A stretch of 64,000 nt of DNA from an uncultured Verrucomicrobiota bacterium (GCA_946610035.1 CAMOCC010000001.1:35948-99947); one strand, 5' to 3'; shown: positions 14,927 through 30,173, counted from the first letter of the stretch. The notes: a model not told the origin generated them from the letters alone. A program made the numbers and translations.

Positions 14927-15901
14927 ATGTGGCGGTACATCGGCAGGAGGCTCCTGGAGGTGATTCCGACTACGTTCGGGATTCTCCTCCTCACGTTCGT
15001 CCTCTTCAACGTCGTCTCCGGCGGCTCCCCCGCCGCGACGATACTGGGGAAGGGGGCGGACGAGAAGTCGATCGCCGCTTTCAACAAACGCTACGGATAC
15101 GACAAGCCGCTCCTTGTCGGCGACTGGCGCGCCGAGGACGGCTCCTTCCGGCCGTCGAAGGCGTTTGACAGCCAGTTCTTCAACTTCCTGAAGAGCGTCG
15201 CGACGGGAGACCTCGGCTACTCGTCCAAGCTGGACGAGCCGGTGGCGGACGTCCTGAAGCGCGGCGTCGGGCCGTCCCTTTCGCTAACCGTGCCGATACT
15301 CTTCCTCGGAGTCGTCTTCGCGCTGTTCCTCGCGCTCCTCTCCGCCGCGTATCGAGGGCGGGTGCCTGACAGGATAATACTCTTCGTCTCGGCGGCCCTC
15401 ATGAGCGTCAACTACGTCGTGTGGGTCCTCGCCGGACAGTTCCTTCTGGCGTTCAAGGCGGGCTGGTTCCCGATATGGGGGTATTCGGGGCCGAGCTACC
15501 TCGTCCTCCCCGTGGCCATCGGGGTGCTCAGCTCGCTCGGAATGGACGTGCGTTTCTTCAGGACCGCCGTCATGGACGAGATTTACAAGCCGTACGTCCT
15601 CACCGCCCGGGCGAAGGGACTGACGCCGTCCGTCATAATGACACGTCACGTCCTGCGGAACGCCCTGATACCGATAGTGACGTACGTTTCGCTCTCGATT
15701 CCGTACCTCTTCACTGGCTCGCTCCTCCTGGAAAGCTTCTTCGGGATCCCCGGTCTCGGGTCCGTCTCGATAAACGCGATACAGTCGGCGGACCTCGCAG
15801 TCGTCCGCGCCGTGGTGGTCCTGGGCGCGCTCCTGTACCAGTTCGTGAACCTTGCGACGGACCTCCTGTATGCGATTCTCGATCCGAGGGTCGCCTTGTA
15901 G
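14927..15901 (+). CDS. ABC transporter permease, DppB/OppB family (orphan: no partner C/D/F/A genes nearby)
   Basis: N-terminal YIGRRLLEVIPTTFGILLLTFVLF. EAA-like loop ARAKGLTPSVIMTRHVLRNALIPIVT. Confidence 0.75.
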   Translation: MWRYIGRRLLEVIPTTFGILLLTFVLFNVVSGGSPAATILGKGADEKSIAAFNKRYGYDKPLLVGDWRAEDGSFRPSKAFDSQFFNFLKSVATGDLGYSSKLDEPVADVLKRGVGPSLSLTVPILFLGVVFALFLALLSAAYRGRVPDRIILFVSAALMSVNYVVWVLAGQFLLAFKAGWFPIWGYSGPSYLVLPVAIGVLSSLGMDVRFFRTAVMDEIYKPYVLTARAKGLTPSVIMTRHVLRNALIPIVTYVSLSIPYLFTGSLLLESFFGIPGLGSVSINAIQSADLAVVRAVVVLGALLYQFVNLATDLLYAILDPRVAL

Positions 15902-17353: not shown

Positions 17354-18496
17354 ATGAAAATTCTACAGGTCCTACCGGCGCTTGAACAGGGGGGCGTCGA
17401 ACGCGGCACGATTGAAATAGCGACGGCGCTTGCCGCCGCCGGTGTGCCGTCCGCAGTCGCGAGCGCGGGCGGGCGGCTCGTAGGCGAGCTGGAGCGGCTC
17501 GGCATAGAGCACTTCACACTGCCTCTCGCCTCGAAGAATCCGTTCACAGTCCGTCGTAACGGCAAAGCCCTCGCGCGTATTGCGCAGGAGGGCGGCTTCA
17601 CCCTGATGCACGTGCGCTCGCGTGCGCCGGCGTGGAGCGTGAGGCGCGCGTCGAGGCTTTCGGGCGTCCCTTTCATGTCGACATGGCACGGACTCTACGG
17701 GACTGAGCCGAAGTTCCTCAAGATACCCTACAATCGGGTGATGCTGGACGGTTTGAAGACGATAGCCGTCTCCGACTGCGTGAGGAACCACATCTTGTCC
17801 GTATACGGCGCAGATCCCGCGAAGGTCGTGAGGATCCACCGCGGCGCCGACGTCGAGACGTTCCGCCCCGACGCCGTATCCGCCGAAGAGGCGGCGGCGT
17901 TCAAGGCCTCCCTTGGCTTCGACCCCGATACGCCTGTCGTCACGCTGCCCGGGCGCCTTACGTTCTGGAAGGGGCAGAAGGACCTCCTCGCGGCCGTCGG
18001 CATTATGCGCGAGCGCGCCGTCGGGGTCCTGTTCGTCGGCTCCGACCAAGGGCGGACGGAATACACGGCCGAGCTGAAGGCGCTTGCGGCGAAGCTGCCC
18101 GCCGCGAAGAAGGTCGTCTTCCTCGAGCATTCGAACGAGATGCCGAAGATATACGCCGTGAGCGACGTAGTGGTGAGCGCGTCGTCGTCCCAGCCGGAGG
18201 CGTTCGGCAGGATCATCCCCGAGGCGCAGGCCATGGGGCGCCTCGTCGTCGGTACTGCACACGGCGGCGCGTGCGAGACGATAGAGGACGGGAGGACCGG
18301 CTTCCTCGTCCCGCCCGCCGACCCGCCCGCGCTCGCGGCGGCGCTTGACAGGGCGCTCGACCTCCCGGCGGAGGAGAGGGCGAAGATGGCGGAGGCGTCC
18401 GTCAAGTCGGTGGGGGAGAACTTCTCCGTCGCCAAGATGTGCGCAAGGACTCTGGAGCTTTACAAGGAGATACACAATGGACTTCATCACAGGTAG
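17354..18496 (+). CDS. GT4-family glycosyltransferase (GT-B, retaining)
   Basis: C-terminal EAFGRIIPEAQAMGRLVVGTAHGGACETIEDGRTGFLV (E-x7-E motif). TGaTATAAT sits 9 nt upstream of the ATG. Confidence 0.75.
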   Translation: MKILQVLPALEQGGVERGTIEIATALAAAGVPSAVASAGGRLVGELERLGIEHFTLPLASKNPFTVRRNGKALARIAQEGGFTLMHVRSRAPAWSVRRASRLSGVPFMSTWHGLYGTEPKFLKIPYNRVMLDGLKTIAVSDCVRNHILSVYGADPAKVVRIHRGADVETFRPDAVSAEEAAAFKASLGFDPDTPVVTLPGRLTFWKGQKDLLAAVGIMRERAVGVLFVGSDQGRTEYTAELKALAAKLPAAKKVVFLEHSNEMPKIYAVSDVVVSASSSQPEAFGRIIPEAQAMGRLVVGTAHGGACETIEDGRTGFLVPPADPPALAAALDRALDLPAEERAKMAEASVKSVGENFSVAKMCARTLELYKEIHNGLHHR

Positions 18497-20330
18497 GAAG
18501 GGGTGGATGCTCCCGCCCGTCGTCTTCTTCGCGCTCGTCGTGGCGCTGTTCGCCGTCTGGGCCGCGCTCGAACCCGCGACGCTCGTGCGGCTCTTCGACC
18601 AGGACGGCCGCTCGCCGTTCGAGCTCGCGACGCTGCCTTTCTACGCGGCGATCGTCCCGATGGTCTGGATATTCAATCCGTTCGGCGGCTCGCGTCGCCG
18701 CAGGACCGTACTTGCGCTCATGGTGAGCATCGTCGCGGTGATGGCGATAGTCAAGGAGCTCGACCTCCACAACATGGCTCTGCACGCGCTCTATCCGCAG
18801 TTCGTCGGCGACGACGGAAGCATCCTCGCAAGCGCGGGCCTCCACAAGCCGGACGGCAAGTTGCTGACCGGGACGCCCTTCAAGATGCGCGTCCTCACCA
18901 ACGGCGGCGTCCCCTTCGGGATGAAGGCGCTCGTCGTCGGCTACTTCGCGGCCTTCTTCGGAGTGTTCGCTGCGGGCTTCGTCTACCTCCTCCAGTTCTG
19001 GATCGACGGCGTCCTCAGGCTGAGGCCGTGCGCATGGGCGTGGGGCTGCTTCGGCGGAAGCGGGGTCATGGTGCAGATCGCGGACAGGCTCCCCGCGTGG
19101 CTCGACCACGCGCACGGGCTGTCGAAATCCGAGGGCGCCGTTACGGCCGCGCAGTCGCTCTGCACCGCGCTGGAGGAGGGCGGCGAGCTGATGATAGCCG
19201 TCTTCGCGCTTCTGACGATCTACCTCGGCTGGCGGGAAGTTCGCGATTCGCGCACCACCGCCCGCGCGCCGCGCCGCGTCCTCTTCTGGGGCCGGTTCGA
19301 CCACGGCTACTCCAGGAACCGCGTCAACATCGCGCTTTTCAGGGAGCTGGGCTGGGCGGTCGACTTCTTCGACGTCGTCGTATCGCCGCGCTTCGGCGAC
19401 ATCGAGGCGTTCTGCCGCGGGCTCGGCCGCCGTCCGAAGCCGGACCTCGTCTGGGTGCCGGTGTGCCGTCAGCGCGACATAATGGCGGCATGCCGCTGGG
19501 CGCATCGCCGCGGCGTCAAGGTCCTCTTCGACCCGATGATCTCGGCCTGGGACAAGAAGGTCCTCGAACAGCGCAAGTGGAAGGCCGACGAGCCGAGGGC
19601 GCGTAAGCTCCACGACGCCGAGACGGCGATGATGAACGCGCCCGATTTCGTCACCTGGGATACGAGCTGCCACGTCGACTTCTGCGAAAGGGAGTTCCAT
19701 GTGCCGCGCGAGAGAATGGCGCCGCTCTTCACTGGAACCGACGAGAAGGTGTTCAGGCCGCAAGAGGGAGCGCCGGCGCCGAACGCCGAGTTCCGCGTCC
19801 TCTACCACGGCGCGTACCTGCCGCTGCACGGAATGGAGTACATCGTAGAGGCGGCGCGCATGACGGAGGGGAGGGGCATACACTGGGACCTCCTCGGCTG
19901 GGGCGCGTACAAGGCTCCGACCGAGGCGCTTGCCAAGGGCATATCGAACATCACATTCCTCGACAAGGTGCCGTACGTCGACGTCCCGAAGGTCATCTAC
20001 ACGGCGGACGTCGTCCTCGGCGTCTTCGGGACGACGGAGAAGGCGTCCCGCGTGATCGGCAACAAGATCTTCGAGGCGATGGGCTGCGCAAGGCCGGTCA
20101 TCAACGAGTTCTGCACGGGCTATCCGCCCGAGGCGAAGGACTGCAAGGCGATAAAGTTCGTCCCGCCGGGCGACGCGGCGGCGATCGTGAAGGCCGTCGA
20201 GGAGTACCGCGCCGACTGGGCGAACCGCGAGAGCTACAACGAGGCGGCCTACGACTTCTTCAAAAGGCACCTCTCGATGGCCGAGGTCAAGAAGCAGCTC
20301 GTCGGGATCCTCGGGAGGATGGGGCTGTGA
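18476..20330 (+). CDS. Membrane-anchored glycosyltransferase (N-terminal polytopic domain + C-terminal GT4-like domain)
   Basis: Starts MDFITGRKGWMLPPVVFFALVV. Overlaps the upstream gene by 21 nt. C-terminal region resembles the GT-B C-domain. Confidence 0.5.
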
Positions 20331-21367
20331 AGCGCCGTCCGAGACTGCTGTTCGTCGGCAACTTCCTCATCCGCCACTGGGGGAACGGACGCACCGGCAT
20401 AGACATGCGCTTCGAGGCCGCGGCCTTGAGGATGAACCACCCCGTCCTAACATTCTCCGAGCGCGACGTCGCCCGCTTCCTCGCCCCCCTCGGCTTCATG
20501 CGCAACATCGGCGCGAGGATGATGAACGGACGGCTCGTTAAGGCCGTCGCCAACTTCAAGCCGGACGTCGTCTTCATCTCCCACTGCGATTACGTGACGA
20601 ACGAGACGCTCGAGGCGTGCCGCAGGGCCGCGCCCGGGGTGAAGCTCGTCCATTTGAACTGCGATCCCGTCGAGACGGAGCACTGCTGTGCGCAGATAGC
20701 GAGGCGCATGCACTCGTGCGACGCGATCTTCGTGACGACCGCCGGCGAGAAGCTCAAGACATGGGTCACCGGCAGGAACGTCGTCGGGTACTTCCCGAAC
20801 CCCAGCGACCCCGCATTCGAGACGGAGGACAACTCGGTCAAGGCGGACTTCAAGTACGACCTCTTCTTCGCGGGGCGCCCCGCGCTCGCTGATGCGAGGA
20901 GGGACCTCCTCGACAAGCTCGTCGCGAAGCTCGACCCGAAGGTGAGGTTCGGCCTCTTCGGCATGGACCGGGCTCCGCTCGTCGTGGGACGCGCCTACGA
21001 GGAGGCGATAGCCGCGTCGAAGATGGGGCTTTCCATCAACCGCTTCGAGAACTGGAAGTGGTACGCGTCGGACCGCATCACGCACCTCATGGCGAACGGG
21101 GTCCTCACCTTCCAGTACGACGGCAACGACATGCAGAGGTTCTTCTCGGACAGGGAGACCGTCTACTTCCACACGCCTGAGGAGCTAGCGGAGAAGATCG
21201 CCTGGTACAACGAAAACGACAAGGCGAGGCGCACCGTGGCATCGGCCGGACGCGAACGGTACAACACGCTCTTCGACGCACGAAGGGTCCTTTCCTACAT
21301 CCTGGAGACGGTGCTCGGCGAAGGCTACACCTCCGCGTACGAATGGGCGAGGGAGGTATACCGTTGA
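20327..21367 (+). CDS. Putative GT1-like glycosyltransferase (CgeB/DUF3880-type)
   Basis: GTGA start overlap. C-terminal ...YFHTPEELAEKIAWYNENDKARRTVASAGRERY resembles the CgeB-like GT tail. Confidence 0.35.
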   Translation: MKRRPRLLFVGNFLIRHWGNGRTGIDMRFEAAALRMNHPVLTFSERDVARFLAPLGFMRNIGARMMNGRLVKAVANFKPDVVFISHCDYVTNETLEACRRAAPGVKLVHLNCDPVETEHCCAQIARRMHSCDAIFVTTAGEKLKTWVTGRNVVGYFPNPSDPAFETEDNSVKADFKYDLFFAGRPALADARRDLLDKLVAKLDPKVRFGLFGMDRAPLVVGRAYEEAIAASKMGLSINRFENWKWYASDRITHLMANGVLTFQYDGNDMQRFFSDRETVYFHTPEELAEKIAWYNENDKARRTVASAGRERYNTLFDARRVLSYILETVLGEGYTSAYEWAREVYR

Positions 21368-22740
21368 TGCACCTCGGCTGGTCGTCGCACATCTACCCGT
21401 TGGATGCCGCCGATCTGGCGGGCGTCCCGGACTACGACGGGCCGGACATCCCCGCATGCGACCTGCCGGGCGACGAGGTGGTGCTCCTGATCCGACGCGA
21501 AGCGCCCGACGCGCTGTTGCGCGGACGCGCCGCGATCGAAGCGGCCGGCGCCGGAACGGTGGACGTCCGCATAGTGTTCGTCCCGACCATCGCGAAGTGG
21601 AACCTCCCGTTCACCCTCATGCGCCTCCTGCGCAACAGGAGGCGGTTCAAGAGCTCGGGCGTGTACCATATTGCGACGGACTCCCTGCGCAGCCTCGGGC
21701 TCGAACGCGCCGTAAGGACGCTCGACCATCCGCAGCGCAGAGGCTCCTCGGACAGGATTGAAAGGATGCATCGCCTGGAGGAGAGCCTGCGGACGGAAGG
21801 CTACGACGACTCGAAGCCCGTTGTCGTCATGCTCTGCCGCACGCGCGGCGTCGAGGACTCCGTCCGCCAGGGGCACCACCGTATCAGCGTATGCCTGGAG
21901 GTCGGAATCCCCAAGGTGGCGCTTCGCTTCTCCGCTGCAGGGGCGCTGCCGCGCATCCTGGGAAGGGCCGTGGGGCGCCCGCCGATCAGGCTGGACGTGC
22001 TGAAACGCTCCATTGAAAGCGCATGCGGCAAGCCCGTGCGGCGGATCGTTCCGCTCGGGGACAGTCCCAATCCGGCGAAGGTCATCGTCGTCCCCGAGCC
22101 GGGCGGAAGGTTCGTCCTCGACCTCTCCCAGAGCCGCAGGCTTACAGTGGGGCTCGCCCCGGCGATACTCGTCCCGCTGCTCGTCGCAGGCGCGTTCGTA
22201 TTGGACGTCGCCGTCATGAAGACGGCGATGGGCGAACACTCCCTGGTGGCTTGGAGCCAGTTCGCGCTTTCGGGCGCGTCGTCAGTGCTTTTGTGGATCC
22301 TCGTCTTACGCGAGAGGCGCGCGAGGTGCGGATACGCGGCCCTTGCCTTCACCTTCGCCATGACTGCGGTGTACGAGCTTCTGAGGGACGTCCTCGACGT
22401 GGGCTCCAACGTTGTCGGACCGGCCGCCACGCTATCCGCCGTCTCCTTCGCCGTTCTCGTCGCGGTGTTTGCGAGGCGCTCCTTCGCCGTCGGCGTCCGC
22501 CGCATAGCCTCGTCTCGCGCCTTCCCCGCGCTCGTCTTCGGGGCTGTTCTCACGTGGATCGTCGCGAAGCTCGTCTCGAGCCGCGCGATTTGGGGCGCAC
22601 TCAAACTCACCGAGCACGACTTGAAGACGGTGAAGCACGTCATCGAGGAGGGGACGGAGTTCCTGGGCGACGCCATTGCGGCGTGCTGGGCGATCTCCTT
22701 CTTCCTCGAGCGCCTTGCGGATTGGAGGCACCGGAGATGA
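21367..22740 (+). CDS. Hypothetical protein with C-terminal multi-TM domain
   Basis: TGATG start overlap. At least four hydrophobic helices in the C-terminal third. Confidence 0.4.
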   Translation: MHLGWSSHIYPLDAADLAGVPDYDGPDIPACDLPGDEVVLLIRREAPDALLRGRAAIEAAGAGTVDVRIVFVPTIAKWNLPFTLMRLLRNRRRFKSSGVYHIATDSLRSLGLERAVRTLDHPQRRGSSDRIERMHRLEESLRTEGYDDSKPVVVMLCRTRGVEDSVRQGHHRISVCLEVGIPKVALRFSAAGALPRILGRAVGRPPIRLDVLKRSIESACGKPVRRIVPLGDSPNPAKVIVVPEPGGRFVLDLSQSRRLTVGLAPAILVPLLVAGAFVLDVAVMKTAMGEHSLVAWSQFALSGASSVLLWILVLRERRARCGYAALAFTFAMTAVYELLRDVLDVGSNVVGPAATLSAVSFAVLVAVFARRSFAVGVRRIASSRAFPALVFGAVLTWIVAKLVSSRAIWGALKLTEHDLKTVKHVIEEGTEFLGDAIAACWAISFFLERLADWRHRR

Positions 22741-24689
22741 AGGCCGATTTCGGGATAGGTGAATTGAAGTCCGCGCTGGAGTCCGGCTACGGCGTCGCGG
22801 TAGCCGCCCTTGAGCGGCTTCCCGGGCACGCCCATTCGATAAACTTCAAGGTCGCGACGGAAGACGGAGCGGCCTTCGCCGCGAAGTGCTTCCCCGCCGC
22901 CCACGTGTCGATGTTCGAGCGCCTTCTCGCGCACACCGCCCCTTCGGAGAATCCCCTCGCGGTGACGCGTCTCTTCGACGGGCGCATACTCGAGTTCGGA
23001 TCGTGGCGGATCGCGGCGCTCAAGTGGATCCCGGGCGGACGCAAATACCCGGATGAACTTACTGACGCGGAGGCGGATGAATTCCTCTCCGCATACGGCG
23101 CCTTCGCCGCCGGGTTGAAGGACGACGGATTCATAATGCCCGTCCGGGACGGCCTTGCGCTCAAGCGGAAGCTCATCGAGCGGCTGAAGGGCGGCAATGC
23201 GCCCGCGATCGTGCGTGAACTGAAGCTCATGCCGGACGACACGCTCTCGCTCGCACCGGAGGCGAGGCGGATCATCCACGGCGACCTCCACTGGGAGAAC
23301 TTCAGGTTCGAGGGCGGCAGGGTGAGCGGCTTCCTCGACTTGGAGGCGCTCAGGTTCGGGACGCCGGCGGAGGATTTTGTCCGCTACATAGTCTGCCGCG
23401 CCGAGCACCTCAGGTGGTACGATCTCGGTGGACGGCGCAGGCTGCTCGATGCGTTCCGCATGTTCCTCGCCCGGACGTCCCTTACGCGTGCGGAGTGGCT
23501 TTTCGCAATCGACGGCTACCTCCTCAGGAAGCTCGACAAGAAGATCAAGGCGAGGCGCGTCCCGCTGGCGACGAGGATAAACCTCGGGGCGCGATTCGGC
23601 TTCTACCGCGAACTGAGGGACGAGGTGTATCGCGCCATGCCGCACGTACGCACGGACGACCGGACTGTAGTCAAGATTCTTGGCGGGACGGTCAAGCGCT
23701 TCATGGGCGGACGCGTCTTCGACTGGGGCGGGAGGTTCCGCTTCGTCTGCGATCCCGCCTGCCGCGACTACGACTGGCTGTGCGTCTACGACGAGCTGCC
23801 GAACGCGTACCCGGGGGTGGTGCGCGGGAGGATGCGCGTGGAGTGTCCGAGGGGGCGGACGATCCTCGCCACGCAGGAGCCGGTGTCCGTCAAGTTCTAC
23901 AACAAGGCGTATACGCGCCAGTTCGGAGTCCTCCTCACGAACCGTCCGCCCGAGGCCGAGGGCCATCCCGGCTACGTGAAGGGCGAGGGGTACATGGTCT
24001 GGTACACCGGTCGCAGCTTCGCCGGGGAGCGCGCACACGAGGTCCCGGAGAAGACGAAGGTCCTCTCCGCCGTCTATTCGGCAAAGCGCATGGCGCATAC
24101 GCGCCATGCGGACCGCTACCGCTTCCTGGAGCTTCTCAGGCGCGAGGTGTCCGGCTTCGACTGGTTCGGGAAGGGCGTGAAGCCCATCGAGGAGAAGTCC
24201 GACGCCCTGGACGGCTACAAGTACACGATTGCCTTCGAGAACCACATCGGCGCGGGGCATTGGACGGAGAAGCTTTCTGACGCGCTGGTCGCGGGATGCC
24301 TTCCGTTCTACGCGGGCGATCCGGAGGTCGGGCGCATACTTCCGCCGGACTGCTTCATCCCGATTCCGGCGGACGACCCCGACGCGGCGCTTGCAATCGT
24401 GAAGAAGGCGATTGCCGAAGGCGAGTACGGGCGGCGGCGCGACGCGATAATGAAGGCGAGGGAGCTTCTGATGACGAAGTACAACCTCTTCGCCCAGATC
24501 GAGAAGGCATGCGAATGGAAAATGGAAAATGTAAAATGTAAAATGGAAAATGGGGAATGGGGAATGGACGAGCCTTCGTGCTGCATTTGCACGCGCAGGC
24601 ATACGAGGCTGTATCCGAGCGCGGCCGTTGCAGATTTGACGCATCACATCAAGAGATTGTTAAAGAGAAGTCCGGGAGGAACGCCATGA
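22738..24689 (+). CDS. Fusion protein: APH/choline-kinase-like phosphotransferase domain + GT10 (alpha-1,3-fucosyltransferase-type) domain. The 3' end contains a 7-nt repeat tract.
   Basis: IIHGDLHWENFRF (HGDLHxxN kinase motif). YKYTIAFENHIGAGHWTEKLSDALVAGCLPFYAGD matches the GT10 signature (Y-K-[FY]-x-[IL]-AFEN...TEK). ATGA overlap at both ends. Confidence 0.65.
24513..24568. repeat. Heptanucleotide tandem repeat (GAATGGA/AAATGGA/AAATGTA) x8 at the 3' end of the kinase-GT10 gene
   Basis: gaatgga aaatgga aaatgta aaatgta aaatgga aaatggg gaatggg gaatgga. AT-rich tract in a GC-rich gene. Unit length is not a multiple of 3. Confidence 0.85.
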
Positions 24690-26824: not shown

Positions 26825-28225
26825 TTGTCCGTGGCTACCAATTTCAAGACAAGGCTTATACGGCTTGCGACGGCGCTCATCCCTGCAAAGGGGGTGAGGA
26901 AGCGCATTCGCAGGCGGCTTCTGGACCGCGAGCGCGACGAAAGGGTTGCGCTGACTCTGCCGGGGGTCCGTGCCCGCTACGCCGCGCACGAGGCCGCGTG
27001 CCGTGCGAAGCTTGCGCGCGGCGAGCGGCTGTCAGTCGCCTTCCTCGTCTGCGACGCGTCCATGTTCTCGGGCGAGCCCGTCTTCCTGAAGATGCGCGAC
27101 GACGCGCGCTTCAGGCCGTTCATCGCCGTCGCCCCGCGCGTGACGAGGGGAGACGAATTCCTGCGCGAAACGCTCGACAAGACCGCGGGTGCGCTGGAAG
27201 GGCGCTATCCGGGGGCGGTGGTGCGGCTCTACGACCCCGCCACCGGGCGGAGGGAGCGCCTTGATGCGGACGTCGTTTTCTCCACCGTGCTCTACGAGGA
27301 CCAGACGTATCCCGACTGGACGACTGAGAGGCTTTCGGAACGCTCGCTTGTCGCGATACTCTACTACGGCTACGGCGGACTCTTCTTCACGAACGAGAGG
27401 AAGACGCCGTTCCTCCCGAACATCGTCCTCTCCTGGCGCTATTTCGTGTCCAACGAGGCGACCAGGGCGATGAGCGCCGCAAAGAACCCGCTCCTCTCGC
27501 ACAACACGTTCGCCGTAGGCTACTGCAAGATGGACAGGCTAGAAGAATGTAAAATGGAAAATGGAAAATGTAAAATGGGAAGAGGCGAATGCAGTGTAGG
27601 ACTTGCACCGGGGCCTGCGAGGAAGAAGGTGATGATATGTCCGCACCACTCCATAGACAGGGAGGCGGACGGCCTCGCGCTTTCGACGTTCCTCGAGCAT
27701 GCGGACCTCTTCAGGCGCCTTCCCGCGATGTTTCCGGATGTCGATTTCGTGTTCAGACCGCATCCGCTCCTCTTTCCGAGGCTCGCGACGGCGAAGTGGT
27801 GGGGGCCCGAGAGGACGGCCCGCTACGCGGCGGAGATGGAGGCGCATCCGAACGTGGAGTTCCAGAGGGGCGGCGACTACTTCGCGACGTTCGCCGGGTC
27901 GGACGCGCTCATCCACGACTGCGGGTCGTTCCTGGCGGAGTATTTCTACACGGGGAAGCCGCAGTGCTACATGCTGGCGGACGACGCCACGGTGGAGCGG
28001 CAGTTTCTGCCGTTCGCGAGGCGGCTTCTCGACCACGTGGAGCGCGCGTACACAGACGACGACATCGTCGCCTTCGTGCGACGGGTGGTCCTGGCGGGCG
28101 ACGATCCGCGCAAGGCGGGGAGGGAGGACTTCGCGGCGCGCGAGGTGTGCGTGAACCATCCGCATGCGGCGGCGGGCGTCGTCGATGCGGTTGTGAAGGG
28201 AATCAAACAAGAGGAGGTCAAATAA
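26825..28225 (+). CDS. TagF/TagB-like CDP-glycerol glycerophosphotransferase family protein (start TTG 26825 or GTG 26831). Internal 7-nt repeat tract.
   Basis: C-terminal half carries KKVMICPHHSID...FRPHPLLFPR motifs reminiscent of the Glyphos_transf domain. Low certainty on family. Confidence 0.4.
   Translation: MSVATNFKTRLIRLATALIPAKGVRKRIRRRLLDRERDERVALTLPGVRARYAAHEAACRAKLARGERLSVAFLVCDASMFSGEPVFLKMRDDARFRPFIAVAPRVTRGDEFLRETLDKTAGALEGRYPGAVVRLYDPATGRRERLDADVVFSTVLYEDQTYPDWTTERLSERSLVAILYYGYGGLFFTNERKTPFLPNIVLSWRYFVSNEATRAMSAAKNPLLSHNTFAVGYCKMDRLEECKMENGKCKMGRGECSVGLAPGPARKKVMICPHHSIDREADGLALSTFLEHADLFRRLPAMFPDVDFVFRPHPLLFPRLATAKWWGPERTARYAAEMEAHPNVEFQRGGDYFATFAGSDALIHDCGSFLAEYFYTGKPQCYMLADDATVERQFLPFARRLLDHVERAYTDDDIVAFVRRVVLAGDDPRKAGREDFAAREVCVNHPHAAAGVVDAVVKGIKQEEVK
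27545..27593. repeat. Heptanucleotide tandem repeat (GAATGTA/AAATGGA) x5-7 inside the TagF-like CDS, between its N- and C-terminal domains
   Basis: gaatgta aaatgga aaatgga aaatgta aaatggg (aagaggc gaatgca). Same repeat family as 24513-24568. Confidence 0.85.
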
Positions 28226-28227
28226 AG

Positions 28228-28668
28228 ATGAGCAAGACGATTATAGGCTATACGAGCGGGGTCTACGACCTCTTCCACATAGGGCATCTCAACCTTCTGA
28301 AGAACGCGCACGGGCTCTGCGACAAGCTGATCGTGGGCGTTTCTGTGGACGAGCTCGTGGCGTACAAGCACAAGAGGGCTGTTATCCCGTTTGCGGAGCG
28401 GCTGGAGATCGTCCGTTCGATCAAGTACGTGGACGCGGCGATTCCGCAGGACGACCTGGACAAGTACAAGATGTGGGAGAAGCTCCACTTCGACGTCCTC
28501 TTCGTCGGCGACGACTGGTTCAACACGCCGAGCTGGAAGGAGATGGAGGCCAAGTTCTCGAAGGTGGGCGTCAGGGTCGTCTACTTCCCGCGCACCAAGG
28601 GGACGAGCTCGACGATCCTCTCCGCTACGCTCAAGAAGCTGCGCGAGGGAGAGGGAGGGGCGGCATGA
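28228..28668 (+). CDS. HxGH-family cytidylyltransferase (glycerol-3-phosphate cytidylyltransferase TagD / CCT-ECT type)
   Basis: GYTSGVYDLFHIGHLNLLK (HxGH). RTKGTSST near the C-terminus. GAGGAGG SD. Confidence 0.8.
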   Translation: MSKTIIGYTSGVYDLFHIGHLNLLKNAHGLCDKLIVGVSVDELVAYKHKRAVIPFAERLEIVRSIKYVDAAIPQDDLDKYKMWEKLHFDVLFVGDDWFNTPSWKEMEAKFSKVGVRVVYFPRTKGTSSTILSATLKKLREGEGGAA

Positions 28669-29609
28669 GCCTTCTGGAGCGCAAGTACGAGAAGGGCCAG
28701 CTGGTGACGCGCCTTTGCGGCCTGCGCGTGTGGCGCAGCGCCGGGGAGCCGGGGCTGTCGCTGCAGTCGCAGCTGCTCAGGCGCGAACTGCTGACGGCCG
28801 CCGACATCGGGAACATGCCTCCGGCGCGGGGCTATTCGCGGGATGTCCAGCTCGCCGGCGTCGTGCTGCTCAAGGAGGTGCTGCGCGTCGCGCACGAGAA
28901 CGGATTCCATCCGTGGATGATAAGCGGGAGCCTTCTCGGGGTCGTCCGCCACGGCGGGAGGTTCGTGCCGTGGGACGACGACGTCGACGAGGGGATGATA
29001 CGCGAGGAGTACGACCGTTTCTGCGAGGTGTTCAACGAGAAGTGCCGCGAAGGTTTCTTCGCCTGGCGCCGCTTCTCGCGCAAGTGGAACCAGATCAAGG
29101 TCTCGCACCGCGAGCTGCCGAAGGACGTCACCGCGTCCATCATGTCCTATGATCGCTACTACGCCCCCCTCCCCGGGCTCAAGGAGAAGCACGAATTGTT
29201 CATGAAGGTGAGGTCCGCCCAGGAGCGCAACGCGAAGCGGTTCGATCCGCAGGCGGACGACGCCGCGCACCGCGCGGCGCTCGACCAGGCGAGGCGGGAC
29301 TGGATCATGGACGGCAGGGAGGCGGCGCCGGACGCGGCGAAACCGGCGATCTACCGCGGCGTCGAATTCTCCGTCGCCGGCTGGGTGAAGGAGGCCGCCT
29401 ACGATTACGACGACATATTCCCGCTTAAGTCCGCGACATTCGAGGGCGTCCCCGTGATGGTCCCGAACGACCCCGAGACGGTGCTCACGTACAACTACGG
29501 CGACTGGGCCGGATGGCCCGGACGCCTGGGGCCGCACCATCCGGCCTCGCGATTCAACATGGAGAAGGCGTTGTCGCTCAGGAGGTTCCTGGCGCGGCAC
29601 CGGGATTAG
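28665..29609 (+). CDS. LicD-family phosphotransferase (phosphocholine/phospho-alcohol transferase)
   Basis: ISGSLLGVVRHGGRFVPWDDDVDEGM matches the LicD signature. ATGA overlap. Confidence 0.7.
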   Translation: MSLLERKYEKGQLVTRLCGLRVWRSAGEPGLSLQSQLLRRELLTAADIGNMPPARGYSRDVQLAGVVLLKEVLRVAHENGFHPWMISGSLLGVVRHGGRFVPWDDDVDEGMIREEYDRFCEVFNEKCREGFFAWRRFSRKWNQIKVSHRELPKDVTASIMSYDRYYAPLPGLKEKHELFMKVRSAQERNAKRFDPQADDAAHRAALDQARRDWIMDGREAAPDAAKPAIYRGVEFSVAGWVKEAAYDYDDIFPLKSATFEGVPVMVPNDPETVLTYNYGDWAGWPGRLGPHHPASRFNMEKALSLRRFLARHRD

Positions 29610-29621
29610 GGGAGGGCGGCG

Positions 29622-30173
29622 ATGCTTGACGTGTTGACCGGAATTATGACATTCTGGGTCCTGCCCAGGTCCCGCCGTCTCAAGTGGCGGCGGCGGCTTG
29701 TCTCGTTCTGGCACGGCCTGCCGGTGAGGCGGCGCGCGAAGTCCGTCGGCAGGGGGCTTAAGTGCCATGGGCCCGTAAAGGTCACGCGCCACACCGTCGT
29801 CGGCGAGGGCGTTTCATTCAACGGAGCCAGGATACTTGGGACCGGCAACGTCGTCTTCGGCAACTACGTGCATTCCGGCGAGGGCCTTGTGATCTTCACC
29901 CGCAACCACAACTACAACGGCGGCGAGGCGATCCCGTACGACAGGACATACACGGTCAAGGATGTGACCATCGGCGACTTCGTCTGGATCGGCGCGTATG
30001 TGATCCTCCTTCCCGGCACGAAGATCGGGGAGGGCGCGATCATCCAGGCGGGTTCCGTCGTCCACGGGGAGATTCCGCCCATGGCCATCGCCGGCGGCAA
30101 TCCCGCAAAGGTCTTCGCCGAGCGCGACAGGGCGCACTTCCTTCGCCTTAAGGCGGAAGGAAGATTCCACTGA
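29622..30173 (+). CDS. Hexapeptide-repeat (LbH) sugar O-acetyltransferase
   Basis: Repeated [LIV]GxxxxI hexapeptides. C-terminal IAGGNPAKV. Confidence 0.7.
   Translation: MLDVLTGIMTFWVLPRSRRLKWRRRLVSFWHGLPVRRRAKSVGRGLKCHGPVKVTRHTVVGEGVSFNGARILGTGNVVFGNYVHSGEGLVIFTRNHNYNGGEAIPYDRTYTVKDVTIGDFVWIGAYVILLPGTKIGEGAIIQAGSVVHGEIPPMAIAGGNPAKVFAERDRAHFLRLKAEGRFH

Follow-up and report, generated by a model that had tools for sequence, protein, structure and literature searches.

Enzymes that combine a glycan kinase with glycosyltransferase (GT) modules in one polypeptide are already known. What appears, by analogy, to be the closest characterized precedent for the protein described here is ORF6 of the Klebsiella pneumoniae O7 locus, an O-polysaccharide polymerase/terminator in which an amicoumacin-kinase-like domain is fused to GT2 modules; the O-polysaccharide ends in rhamnose, a 6-deoxyhexose that the kinase phosphorylates, as demonstrated biochemically and with a D441A mutant (PMC11231755). 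In WbdD of Escherichia coli O9a and K. pneumoniae O3, a kinase-fold domain phosphorylates the non-reducing terminal sugar and cooperates with GT4-type transferases (PMC3482155), and this kinase is unlike the AmiN-like type in both sequence and structure (PMC11231755). Here we describe a gene in a 64,000-nucleotide stretch of the genome of an uncultured Verrucomicrobiota bacterium (GCA_946610035.1, CAMOCC010000001.1:35948-99947; hereafter, the window) that encodes a fusion of an aminoglycoside phosphotransferase (APH)-fold kinase module with a diverged fucosyltransferase-like module of family GT10.

Like O7 ORF6, the fusion protein unites a GT and an APH-fold kinase in one polypeptide, and amicoumacin kinase is among the top structural matches of its kinase module. 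The likeness is drawn by description and extends to ORF6 being a cytoplasmic, membrane-associated assembly enzyme that acts on a lipid-linked glycan (PMC11231755). The transferases are different, GT2 with the GT-A fold in ORF6 and GT10 in the fusion, and ORF6 alone comes with a methyltransferase, a domain resembling carbohydrate-binding modules, a long coiled coil and an ABC transporter. WbdD joins its kinase to a methyltransferase and a coiled-coil ruler instead of a glycosyltransferase. The coiled coil of WbdD and ORF6 is lacking in the AlphaFold model of the fusion protein, where the longest helix outside the catalytic folds spans about 21 aa (584-604); Pfam detects no methyltransferase domain in the fusion protein or its operon; and no ABC transporter (Wzm/Wzt) is encoded in the conserved core of the operon or within 10 kb, the BPD_transp_1 permease at 14927-15901 being a solute-import component that is not conserved with the operon. 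Thus, the fusion is not a terminator of the WbdD/ORF6 type, although its kinase module may still work like theirs. A looser parallel is offered by the waa loci of Enterobacteria, which encode together GT4-type GT-B enzymes (WaaG), GT8-like retaining GT-A enzymes (WaaO/R/J) and kinase-fold sugar kinases (WaaP/WaaY), as does the locus described here. The waa kinases belong to the Kdo/WaaP family and stand alone as proteins; waa has no GT10, its GTs carry no transmembrane (TM) fusions, and homology is limited to the superfamily level.

The fusion gene is a single unbroken open reading frame (ORF) on the plus strand (Table 1), called identically on the source scaffold, a 111.5-kb metagenomic contig. 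Its ATG at 22737, one base upstream of the start given in a first-pass annotation (22738), is backed by the coincident N-termini of 25 aligned homologs. This ATG overlaps the stop codon of the upstream ORF (ATGA), and the TGA stop, ending at 24689, overlaps in the same way the ATG of the next ORF (24686); the gene thus belongs to an operon with translational coupling. TM prediction found no TM segment in the 650-aa product, and no NCBIfam model covers it. In the AlphaFold model (predicted local distance difference test, pLDDT, 90.6; predicted template modeling score 0.87), the domains are joined by a continuous, well-predicted helix-to-strand connection, with the kinase occupying aa 1-300 and a complete GT10-like module of the GT-B type occupying aa 305-645. 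The first-pass annotation had recognized that one ORF carries both domains, and both Pfam matches indeed exceed the gathering scores; the motifs that it quoted are likewise present, HGDLHWEN at aa 181-188 and YKYTIAFENHIGAGHWTEK...LPFYAGD at aa 496-528. Its division of the protein into about 330 and 250 aa gives way to about 300 aa of kinase followed by about 340 aa of a two-Rossmann GT-B module with a crossover tail. Pfam, PDB profile and Foldseek searches all back the kinase and the GT10 assignments, and, judging from the conserved sequence features described below, both halves are apparently active enzymes, an ATP-dependent kinase and a GT10-type fucosyltransferase.

The kinase module (denoted APH1) matches the Pfam APH family (PF01636) over aa 26-230 (E=1.2e-15; 58.4 bits against a gathering score of 23.2). 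The family profile compared with the PDB matched APH-type kinases, including viomycin kinase (9e-4) and APH(2''), and a Foldseek search with the N-terminal half retrieved YihE, homoserine kinase II, APH(4), APH(3') and amicoumacin kinase at E-values of 1e-10 to 1e-8, all of the top 41 matches being APH-fold kinases. The catalytic residues are conserved: H181, G182, D183, H185 and N188 of the Brenner-type loop are nearly invariant and are missing solely in a 5'-truncated fragment (P0027), whereas the block that opens with D201 has no exceptions in the alignment.

The C-terminal module matches Pfam Glyco_transf_10 (PF00852) over aa 437-543 (E=1.4e-6; 28.5 bits against a gathering score of 23.9). 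Searched against the PDB, the family profile matched five solved GT10 enzymes at E-values of 6e-10 to 4e-5, among them plant FucTA (9s6a, 6e-10), Helicobacter pylori FucT (HpFucT; 2nzw/5zoi, 1e-8) and FUT9 (4e-5), and matched no other GT family. Foldseek aligned the C-terminal half with FUT9 (8d0w) across 341 columns (E=1e-7), and the AlphaFold model contains two subdomains of alternating strands and helices (aa 305-440 and 441-604) that, together with the crossover tail, make up the GT-B fold. Residues that are invariant or nearly so across the transferase half are E381-P382, S448, K450, R460, E501-N502, W509, E511-K512 and F524-Y525-x-G527-D528. In the donor motif, where E501, N502, W509, E511 and K512 show no variation in the alignment, the sequence departs from the FxxxFEN(S)xxxxYxTEK consensus by the replacement of Y with W and of S with H. 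T379-x-E381-P382, located at a strand end in the N-terminal subdomain, is invariant, and its E-P pair is kept even in stand-alone relatives from Akkermansia. In GT10 enzymes, a glutamate serves as the general base (E95 in HpFucT, E158 in AtFUT11), and E381 is the candidate for this role; the assignment is tentative because the N-subdomain has no sequence match to GT10 N-domains. In the C-terminal tail, R620, R624 and D633 are invariant and P627 is nearly so, with pLDDT of about 79-88; this tail, which is also kept in stand-alone GT10-like proteins, is, according to the model, probably the GT-B crossover segment.

The module shares the GT-B fold and the FxxxFEN...xTEK donor motif with HpFucT (2NZW, 5ZOI), FUT9 and plant FucTA/FUT11. 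In a hidden Markov model alignment with HpFucT, itself a bacterial surface-glycan enzyme, E511-K512 fall on E249-K250 and N502 falls on N240. HpFucT has a variable, repeat-containing C-terminal region ahead of a basic tail, and the C-terminal region of the fusion protein is likewise variable and repeat-containing before its basic tail. The module differs from the solved GT10 enzymes in its low sequence identity (about 15%), in an N-subdomain that is unrecognizable by sequence and in being fused to a kinase. A profile search collected 826 proteins at E<1e-30, both modules counted, among which the GT10-like proteins form a distinct subfamily of the Planctomycetes-Verrucomicrobia-Chlamydiae (PVC) group.

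Within a search space of 5.8 billion proteins, we identified 28 protein clusters with 41-100% identity to the query. The fusion is full-length in 27 of these, the remaining one being P0027. One cluster is named 'aminoglycoside phosphotransferase family protein [Kiritimatiellae bacterium]' in its source and one 'hypothetical protein'; the rest are unnamed. The full fusion was found in about 11 species, all represented by gut Kiritimatiellia metagenome-assembled genomes, mostly from ruminants (one genome per species was scanned). The possibility that an assembly or frameshift error artificially joined two adjacent genes has practically no probability and was rejected given the full-length fusion in all clusters but one, the occurrence of the identical 650-aa protein on several independent contigs and in several samples (14 cluster members) and the continuous, well-predicted junction between the domains. 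Confinement of the architecture to 28 clusters bears out the first-pass view that the domain combination is unusual. No solved structure matched in the PDB profile search contains both kinase and GT10 domains, and a full-text literature search yielded nothing relevant on kinase-GT10 fusions. The claim that no such combination had been characterized therefore stands for kinase-GT10 itself; it does not stand for the underlying idea, which the characterized O7 ORF6 makes less unprecedented than had been held (PMC11231755).

The GT10-like module also occurs alone (320-340 aa, with the same tail) in about 60 species of Kiritimatiellia and Akkermansia, and related architectures show that kinases and GTs have been joined recurrently and independently. 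In L026/P0163 (L026, 3095-4996), the order of the modules is reversed, with GT10 followed by a kinase denoted APH2. This APH2 shares 39-42% identity with stand-alone APH2 proteins but only 27% with APH1, which indicates that the kinase-GT10 fusion arose at least twice. At L030 (4780-6695), APH2 and GT10-like are adjacent, overlapping but separate genes; at L012 (1142-4249), a protein combining TM, kinase-like and APH parts is followed by a GT10-like gene in another frame; and at L017 and L020, APH2 adjoins a GT8-like gene. A profile search combined with Pfam annotation showed that the kinase module has close relatives joined to GT2 and DUF4422 glycosyltransferases (P0195, P0212) and that the GT10-like module has relatives joined to GT11 (the alpha-1,2-fucosyltransferase family), GT9 and GT25 and, in five cases, to FkbM-type methyltransferases; one relative is a 1716-aa GT2-TPR-GT10-GT25 protein. 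These domain architectures suggest a recurring pattern in which a sugar is added and a hydroxyl is then modified. The neighbors of a stand-alone Akkermansia GT10-like gene (L037) are housekeeping and prophage genes, and this locus is therefore uninformative with regard to function.

Comparison of the gene neighborhoods of about 12 related loci (designated by L numbers) revealed a conserved core of five genes, namely, TM-GT1, GT1-like, UP, the fusion and GT8-like (Table 1). The TM-GT1 and GT1-like genes lie upstream of the fusion wherever this flank was recovered (the window, L003/L011, L005, L006, L077, L078 and L079), the TM-GT1 gene being truncated in L005 and devoid of the TM part in L077, and the order UP-fusion-GT8-like is kept at every locus that has both flanks. 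In L077 and L078, the core is flanked by housekeeping genes. The GT8-like protein is the most conserved neighbor of the fusion (67-83% identity). Pfam and PDB sequence searches with this protein came back empty, and it was identified through fold search alone, Foldseek matching its AlphaFold model (pLDDT 93.3) to glycogenin and the catalytic domain of UGGT at E=1e-8; D99-x-D101 is invariant, and the family comprises more than 638 homolog clusters, unnamed or labeled 'hypothetical protein'. The soluble domain of UP (hereafter, the X-domain) had no match in Pfam (E<=5), NCBIfam or PDB profile searches, and in P0019 and P0026 it is fused directly onto the N-terminus of the kinase-GT10 protein. 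A glycerophosphate/LicD branch is limited to the window and its closest relatives, where it is complete in L005 and L079, with no LicD detected in L006. This branch is absent in L002, L003/L011, L008, L009, L077 and L078 and, counting also L004, LicD and the cytidylyltransferase are missing at eight fusion loci. A Wzy_C gene of the O-antigen-ligase/polymerase family is located about 10 kb downstream.

Table 1. Genes of the operon and features of the kinase-GT10 fusion in the window (positions counted from the first nucleotide of the window)
Feature	Position	Strand	Remarks
GT4 gene	17354-18496		
TM-GT1: multi-TM domain plus GT1 protein	18477-20330	+	Core gene
GT1-like protein (Glyco_trans_1_2-like GT-B)	20327-21367	+	Core gene
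UP, 457 aa: conserved soluble domain of about 250 aa of no known family, then 3-4 TM helices	21367-22740	+	Core gene
Kinase-GT10 fusion protein, complete ORF (650 aa plus stop)	22737-24689	+	Core gene; ATGA overlap at both ends
Kinase module, aa 1-300: bilobal APH/eukaryotic-like kinase fold including C-terminal helical subdomain	22737-23636	+	Pfam, Foldseek, PDB profile
K50, probable ATP-anchoring lysine, strand beta-3 (FAAKC)	22884-22886	+	Nearly invariant; role suggested by the APH/protein-kinase fold
HGDLHWEN, aa 181-188: Brenner-type catalytic loop (catalytic D183, N188)	23277-23300	+	Alignment
D201, metal-binding Asp (DFG equivalent), opening the block D-x-E-x-x-R-x-G-x-P-A-E-D	23337-23339	+	Invariant in alignment
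N-terminal (acceptor) Rossmann subdomain, aa 305-440	23649-24056	+	AlphaFold secondary structure, Foldseek FUT9 alignment
C-terminal (GDP-sugar) Rossmann subdomain, aa 441-604	24057-24548	+	S448/K450, R460, FENHIGAGHWTEK; Pfam PF00852
Donor motif FENHIGAGHWTEK, aa 500-512	24234-24272	+	Aligns to HpFucT FENTQGYGYVTEK
Imperfect (AATGGAA)x7.9 heptanucleotide array encoding low-confidence linker ...EWKMENVKCKMENGEWGM...	24514-24568	+	pLDDT <61
Conserved basic C-terminal tail, aa 614-645 (strand 614-618, helices 620-623 and 627-642)	24576-24671	+	Alignment, AlphaFold
GT8/GT24-like retaining GT-A, 267 aa	24686-25489	+	Core gene; AlphaFold, Foldseek
Second kinase-like protein, 433 aa	25489-26790	+	Accessory
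TagF-like protein	26831-28225	+	Accessory
TagD-like cytidylyltransferase	28228-28668	+	Accessory
LicD	28665-29609	+	Accessory
Hexapeptide acyltransferase	29622-30173	+	Accessory

Taken together with the operon, these features incline us, by a modest degree, to the view that the fusion is a bifunctional enzyme that modifies a surface glycan twice, by transfer of a GDP-activated 6-deoxyhexose and by phosphorylation. The identity of the domains, the conservation of the catalytic residues and of the operon, and the repeated independent fusion of the two families are established here, whereas donor and acceptor, the site of phosphorylation, the sequence of the two reactions and the final glycoconjugate are inferred. 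The protein would be soluble, either cytoplasmic or peripheral to the membrane, and would take part in the assembly of surface glycans in gut Kiritimatiellia, its target probably being a glycan of the lipooligosaccharide (LOS) or lipopolysaccharide type or a related glycolipid. The C-terminal module, as a diverged inverting GT10 glycosyltransferase, would bind a GDP-sugar via R460 and E511-K512 (the TEK motif), most likely GDP-beta-L-fucose or, otherwise, another GDP-6-deoxyhexose, and would attach the sugar at a hydroxyl group of the growing glycan, E381 probably serving as the general base. The APH-fold module, using ATP/Mg2+ (K50, D183, N188, D201), would phosphorylate a hydroxyl on the same glycan, either on the newly added fucose or on a neighboring sugar, and the phosphate might cap the terminus, lend it charge or serve as an attachment point for additional groups. 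The predicted partners are the GT4/GT1-type GT-B enzymes of the operon, the GT8-like GT-A and the two membrane-embedded proteins.

The putative coupled synthesis of a phosphorylated and fucosylated epitope, as suggested in the first-pass annotation, gains from the operon context, the reverse-order fusion and the fusions of the relatives of both modules with glycan enzymes, which place the two modules in glycan assembly and tie them functionally. Three alpha-fucoses are present in the LOS core of Akkermansia muciniphila (PMC11436972) and this, along with the stand-alone GT10-like homologs in the genus, makes fucose plausible in this lineage. The GT11 fucosyltransferase modules to which relatives of the GT10-like module are joined lend indirect support to fucose transfer. 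Several observations weigh against a bifunctional fucosyltransferase/glycan kinase. On the transferase side, the GT10 match is modest (28.5 bits) and, at the sequence level, covers only the donor subdomain; the PF00852 match is unrecorded in about a third of the homologs, and several homologs fall below the threshold individually; and the profile of the N-subdomain alone matched no GT10 structure in the PDB. On the kinase side, K50 has no conserved glutamate partner in helix alpha-C, where the residue at the canonical position, E61, varies among the homologs, and the nearest structural matches detected by Foldseek are kinases that act on small molecules or proteins rather than on glycans. Among about 40 ORFs scanned, there are no genes for GDP-fucose synthesis and no Wzx or ABC exporter, and a literature search found no phosphorylated fucose in bacterial glycans.

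The two activities could also be unconnected. In the Lic pathway, LicA is a choline kinase, LicC is a cytidylyltransferase and LicD is a phosphocholine transferase. The window resembles this system in encoding, within 7 kb, an APH-clan kinase, a cytidylyltransferase and a LicD-family transferase, the TagD-like, LicD and TagF-like genes lying 2-5 kb downstream of the fusion, and APH shares its kinase clan with the choline/ethanolamine kinases. The kinase might then act on a free small alcohol (choline, ethanolamine, glycerol or the like), to be activated by the cytidylyltransferase and transferred by the LicD/TagF-like proteins, with the GT10 module adding fucose independently. We regard this scenario as unlikely because the occurrence of LicD and the cytidylyltransferase is not tied to that of the fusion and because no choline-kinase signature is present. 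All three downstream genes are absent from L002, L003/L011, L008, L009, L077 and L078, each of which keeps the fusion, and neither the choline-kinase (PF01633) nor a LicA model matched the protein in Pfam and NCBIfam, so that the 'choline-kinase-like' label of the first-pass annotation finds no specific support. Furthermore, the cytidylyltransferase is of the TagD type, not LicC, and is most similar to the glycerol-3-phosphate type, the substrate of which needs no dedicated kinase, and the fusion partners found among relatives of the kinase are glycosyltransferases rather than nucleotidyltransferases. Alternatively, the kinase could be an anomeric sugar-1-kinase, akin to NahK and AmgK, that feeds the nucleotide-sugar pool of the fused transferase. 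APH-fold anomeric sugar kinases do exist, a kinase fused to the consuming transferase would channel the substrate, and a member of the X-domain family is, in one case (P0397), fused with a cytidylyltransferase. However, activation would require release of the intermediate from the protein, so that channeling would gain nothing from the fusion, and the conserved core operon contains no sugar-1-phosphate guanylyl- or nucleotidyl-transferase. Moreover, the known fucose salvage enzyme, FKP, is a GHMP kinase joined to a pyrophosphorylase, not to a transferase (PMC11982464, PMC12732313). On these grounds, salvage appears quite improbable.

Foldseek ranks a protein kinase, YihE/SrkA, first among the matches of the kinase half, and GT10 includes protein O-fucosyltransferases (PMC11949838). 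The enzyme might thus be directed at proteins, combining Ser/Thr/Tyr phosphorylation with protein O-fucosylation in the manner of the animal GT10 members FUT10 and FUT11. Nevertheless, YihE is only marginally ahead of small-molecule kinases in the Foldseek ranking, the operon encodes glycosyltransferases and membrane proteins, none of them an obvious substrate for protein modification, and the fusion partners of both families are glycan enzymes, all of which makes a protein target very unlikely. That the kinase half confers resistance to aminoglycoside or peptide antibiotics, with the GT fusion being incidental, is more improbable still. This notion draws on the one source name, 'aminoglycoside phosphotransferase family protein', and on the similarity in sequence and fold to viomycin, capreomycin, hygromycin and aminoglycoside kinases. 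Yet these matches are weak (E-values of 1e-3 to 0.2; 9-19% identity), and the curated resistance-enzyme models of NCBIfam were not reached (10.7-10.9 bits against cut-offs of 256-500). Strict conservation in a coupled glycan operon and fusion in both orders would be unexpected for an incidental gene. The source name is, in this case, probably misleading, and APH-fold domains fused to or located next to GTs are better read as glycan kinases.

The gene encoding the fusion contains one of the only two (AATGGAA)n arrays in the window, at 24514-24568 (7.9 copies) and 27546-27578 (4.7 copies), both imperfect, against a chance expectation of 0.01. Both encode linkers, in the fusion protein (aa ~593-611) and in the TagF-like protein (aa 243-253); they are AT-rich and lineage-specific in a genome with 63% GC, and the orthologs lack them. 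Variation among the 14 near-identical fusion proteins is located in the linker encoded at 24514-24568, with substitutions and one 8-aa deletion, always in frame. Because slippage with a period of 7 shifts the frame, a contingency role of these arrays in phase variation is possible.

Several additional observations concern the neighbors of the fusion. The X-domain (window positions 21367 to about 22120; about 210-250 aa) carries an invariant RQGHHR motif. The motif may recall the nucleoside triphosphate-binding folds of ParB and sulfiredoxin, a resemblance that we do not put forward as a claim. The domain is found alone and fused to TM helices, kinases, a cytidylyltransferase, GT8-like proteins and kinase-GT10 (P0019, P0026, P0136, P0330, P0361, P0367, P0379 and P0397). 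The TM domains of TM-GT1 (18477-19250) and UP (22130-22740) both end in a similar acidic sequence (EEGGE and EEGTE, respectively), and these membrane modules may be related to each other; L003 and L078 encode the TM domain of the GT1 protein in a gene of its own. In Akkermansia, the GT8-like gene also pairs with stand-alone GT10-like genes. The second kinase-like protein, encoded in most but not all fusion loci, consists of an N-terminal domain of about 200 aa of unknown family and a C-terminal protein-kinase/APH-like domain with an HRD motif, and weakly resembles Kdo kinase and Ser/Thr kinases.

Elsewhere in the window, a 48-nt tandem array (1383-1620; five copies, 88% identity) lies inside a listed ORF on the minus strand (1179-2462), in which a NuoD-like Pfam match covers aa 160-256 only. 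Each 48-nt unit holds a hairpin, GACGCGGC-loop-GCCGCGTC, with a varying loop. Rfam and tRNA scans of the window, including this array, detected nothing. Between 42001 and 46000, GC content drops to 0.53-0.56, compared with about 0.63 elsewhere, and a GC3-based gene filter retained few ORFs between 41.8 and 48.4 kb, so that the low-GC segment may be foreign or non-coding DNA.

A more far-reaching interpretation, which we consider speculative and improbable as a whole, is that the five-gene core is an undescribed, self-contained glycoconjugate synthase of PVC-group gut bacteria. The two related membrane domains would supply the lipid acceptor or a platform for export, the X-domain would act as a novel adaptor or phosphotransfer module, and the kinase-GT10 protein would build an unreported phospho-fucosyl motif, with slippage in the heptanucleotide repeats switching this motif and the glycerophosphate branch in the present lineage.

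With kinase-GT multidomain enzymes documented, the conceptual surprise of the fusion is limited. What is new is the APH1-GT10 combination, its operon and the two partner families that lack Pfam models, all uncharacterized and confined to gut bacteria of the PVC group. If the proposed activities are correct, a function would be assigned to the kinase subfamily, to the GT10-like subfamily (more than 800 proteins, both modules counted) and to the GT8-like family (more than 600), and a compact two-activity enzyme of this kind could serve in chemoenzymatic glycan synthesis. The gut harbors Kiritimatiellia and Akkermansia as abundant symbionts, and their surface glycans influence how the host recognizes them; the LOS of Akkermansia is already known to be unusually fucosylated. 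In these bacteria, an enzyme that both fucosylates and phosphorylates a surface glycan would define a charged, host-mimicking epitope.

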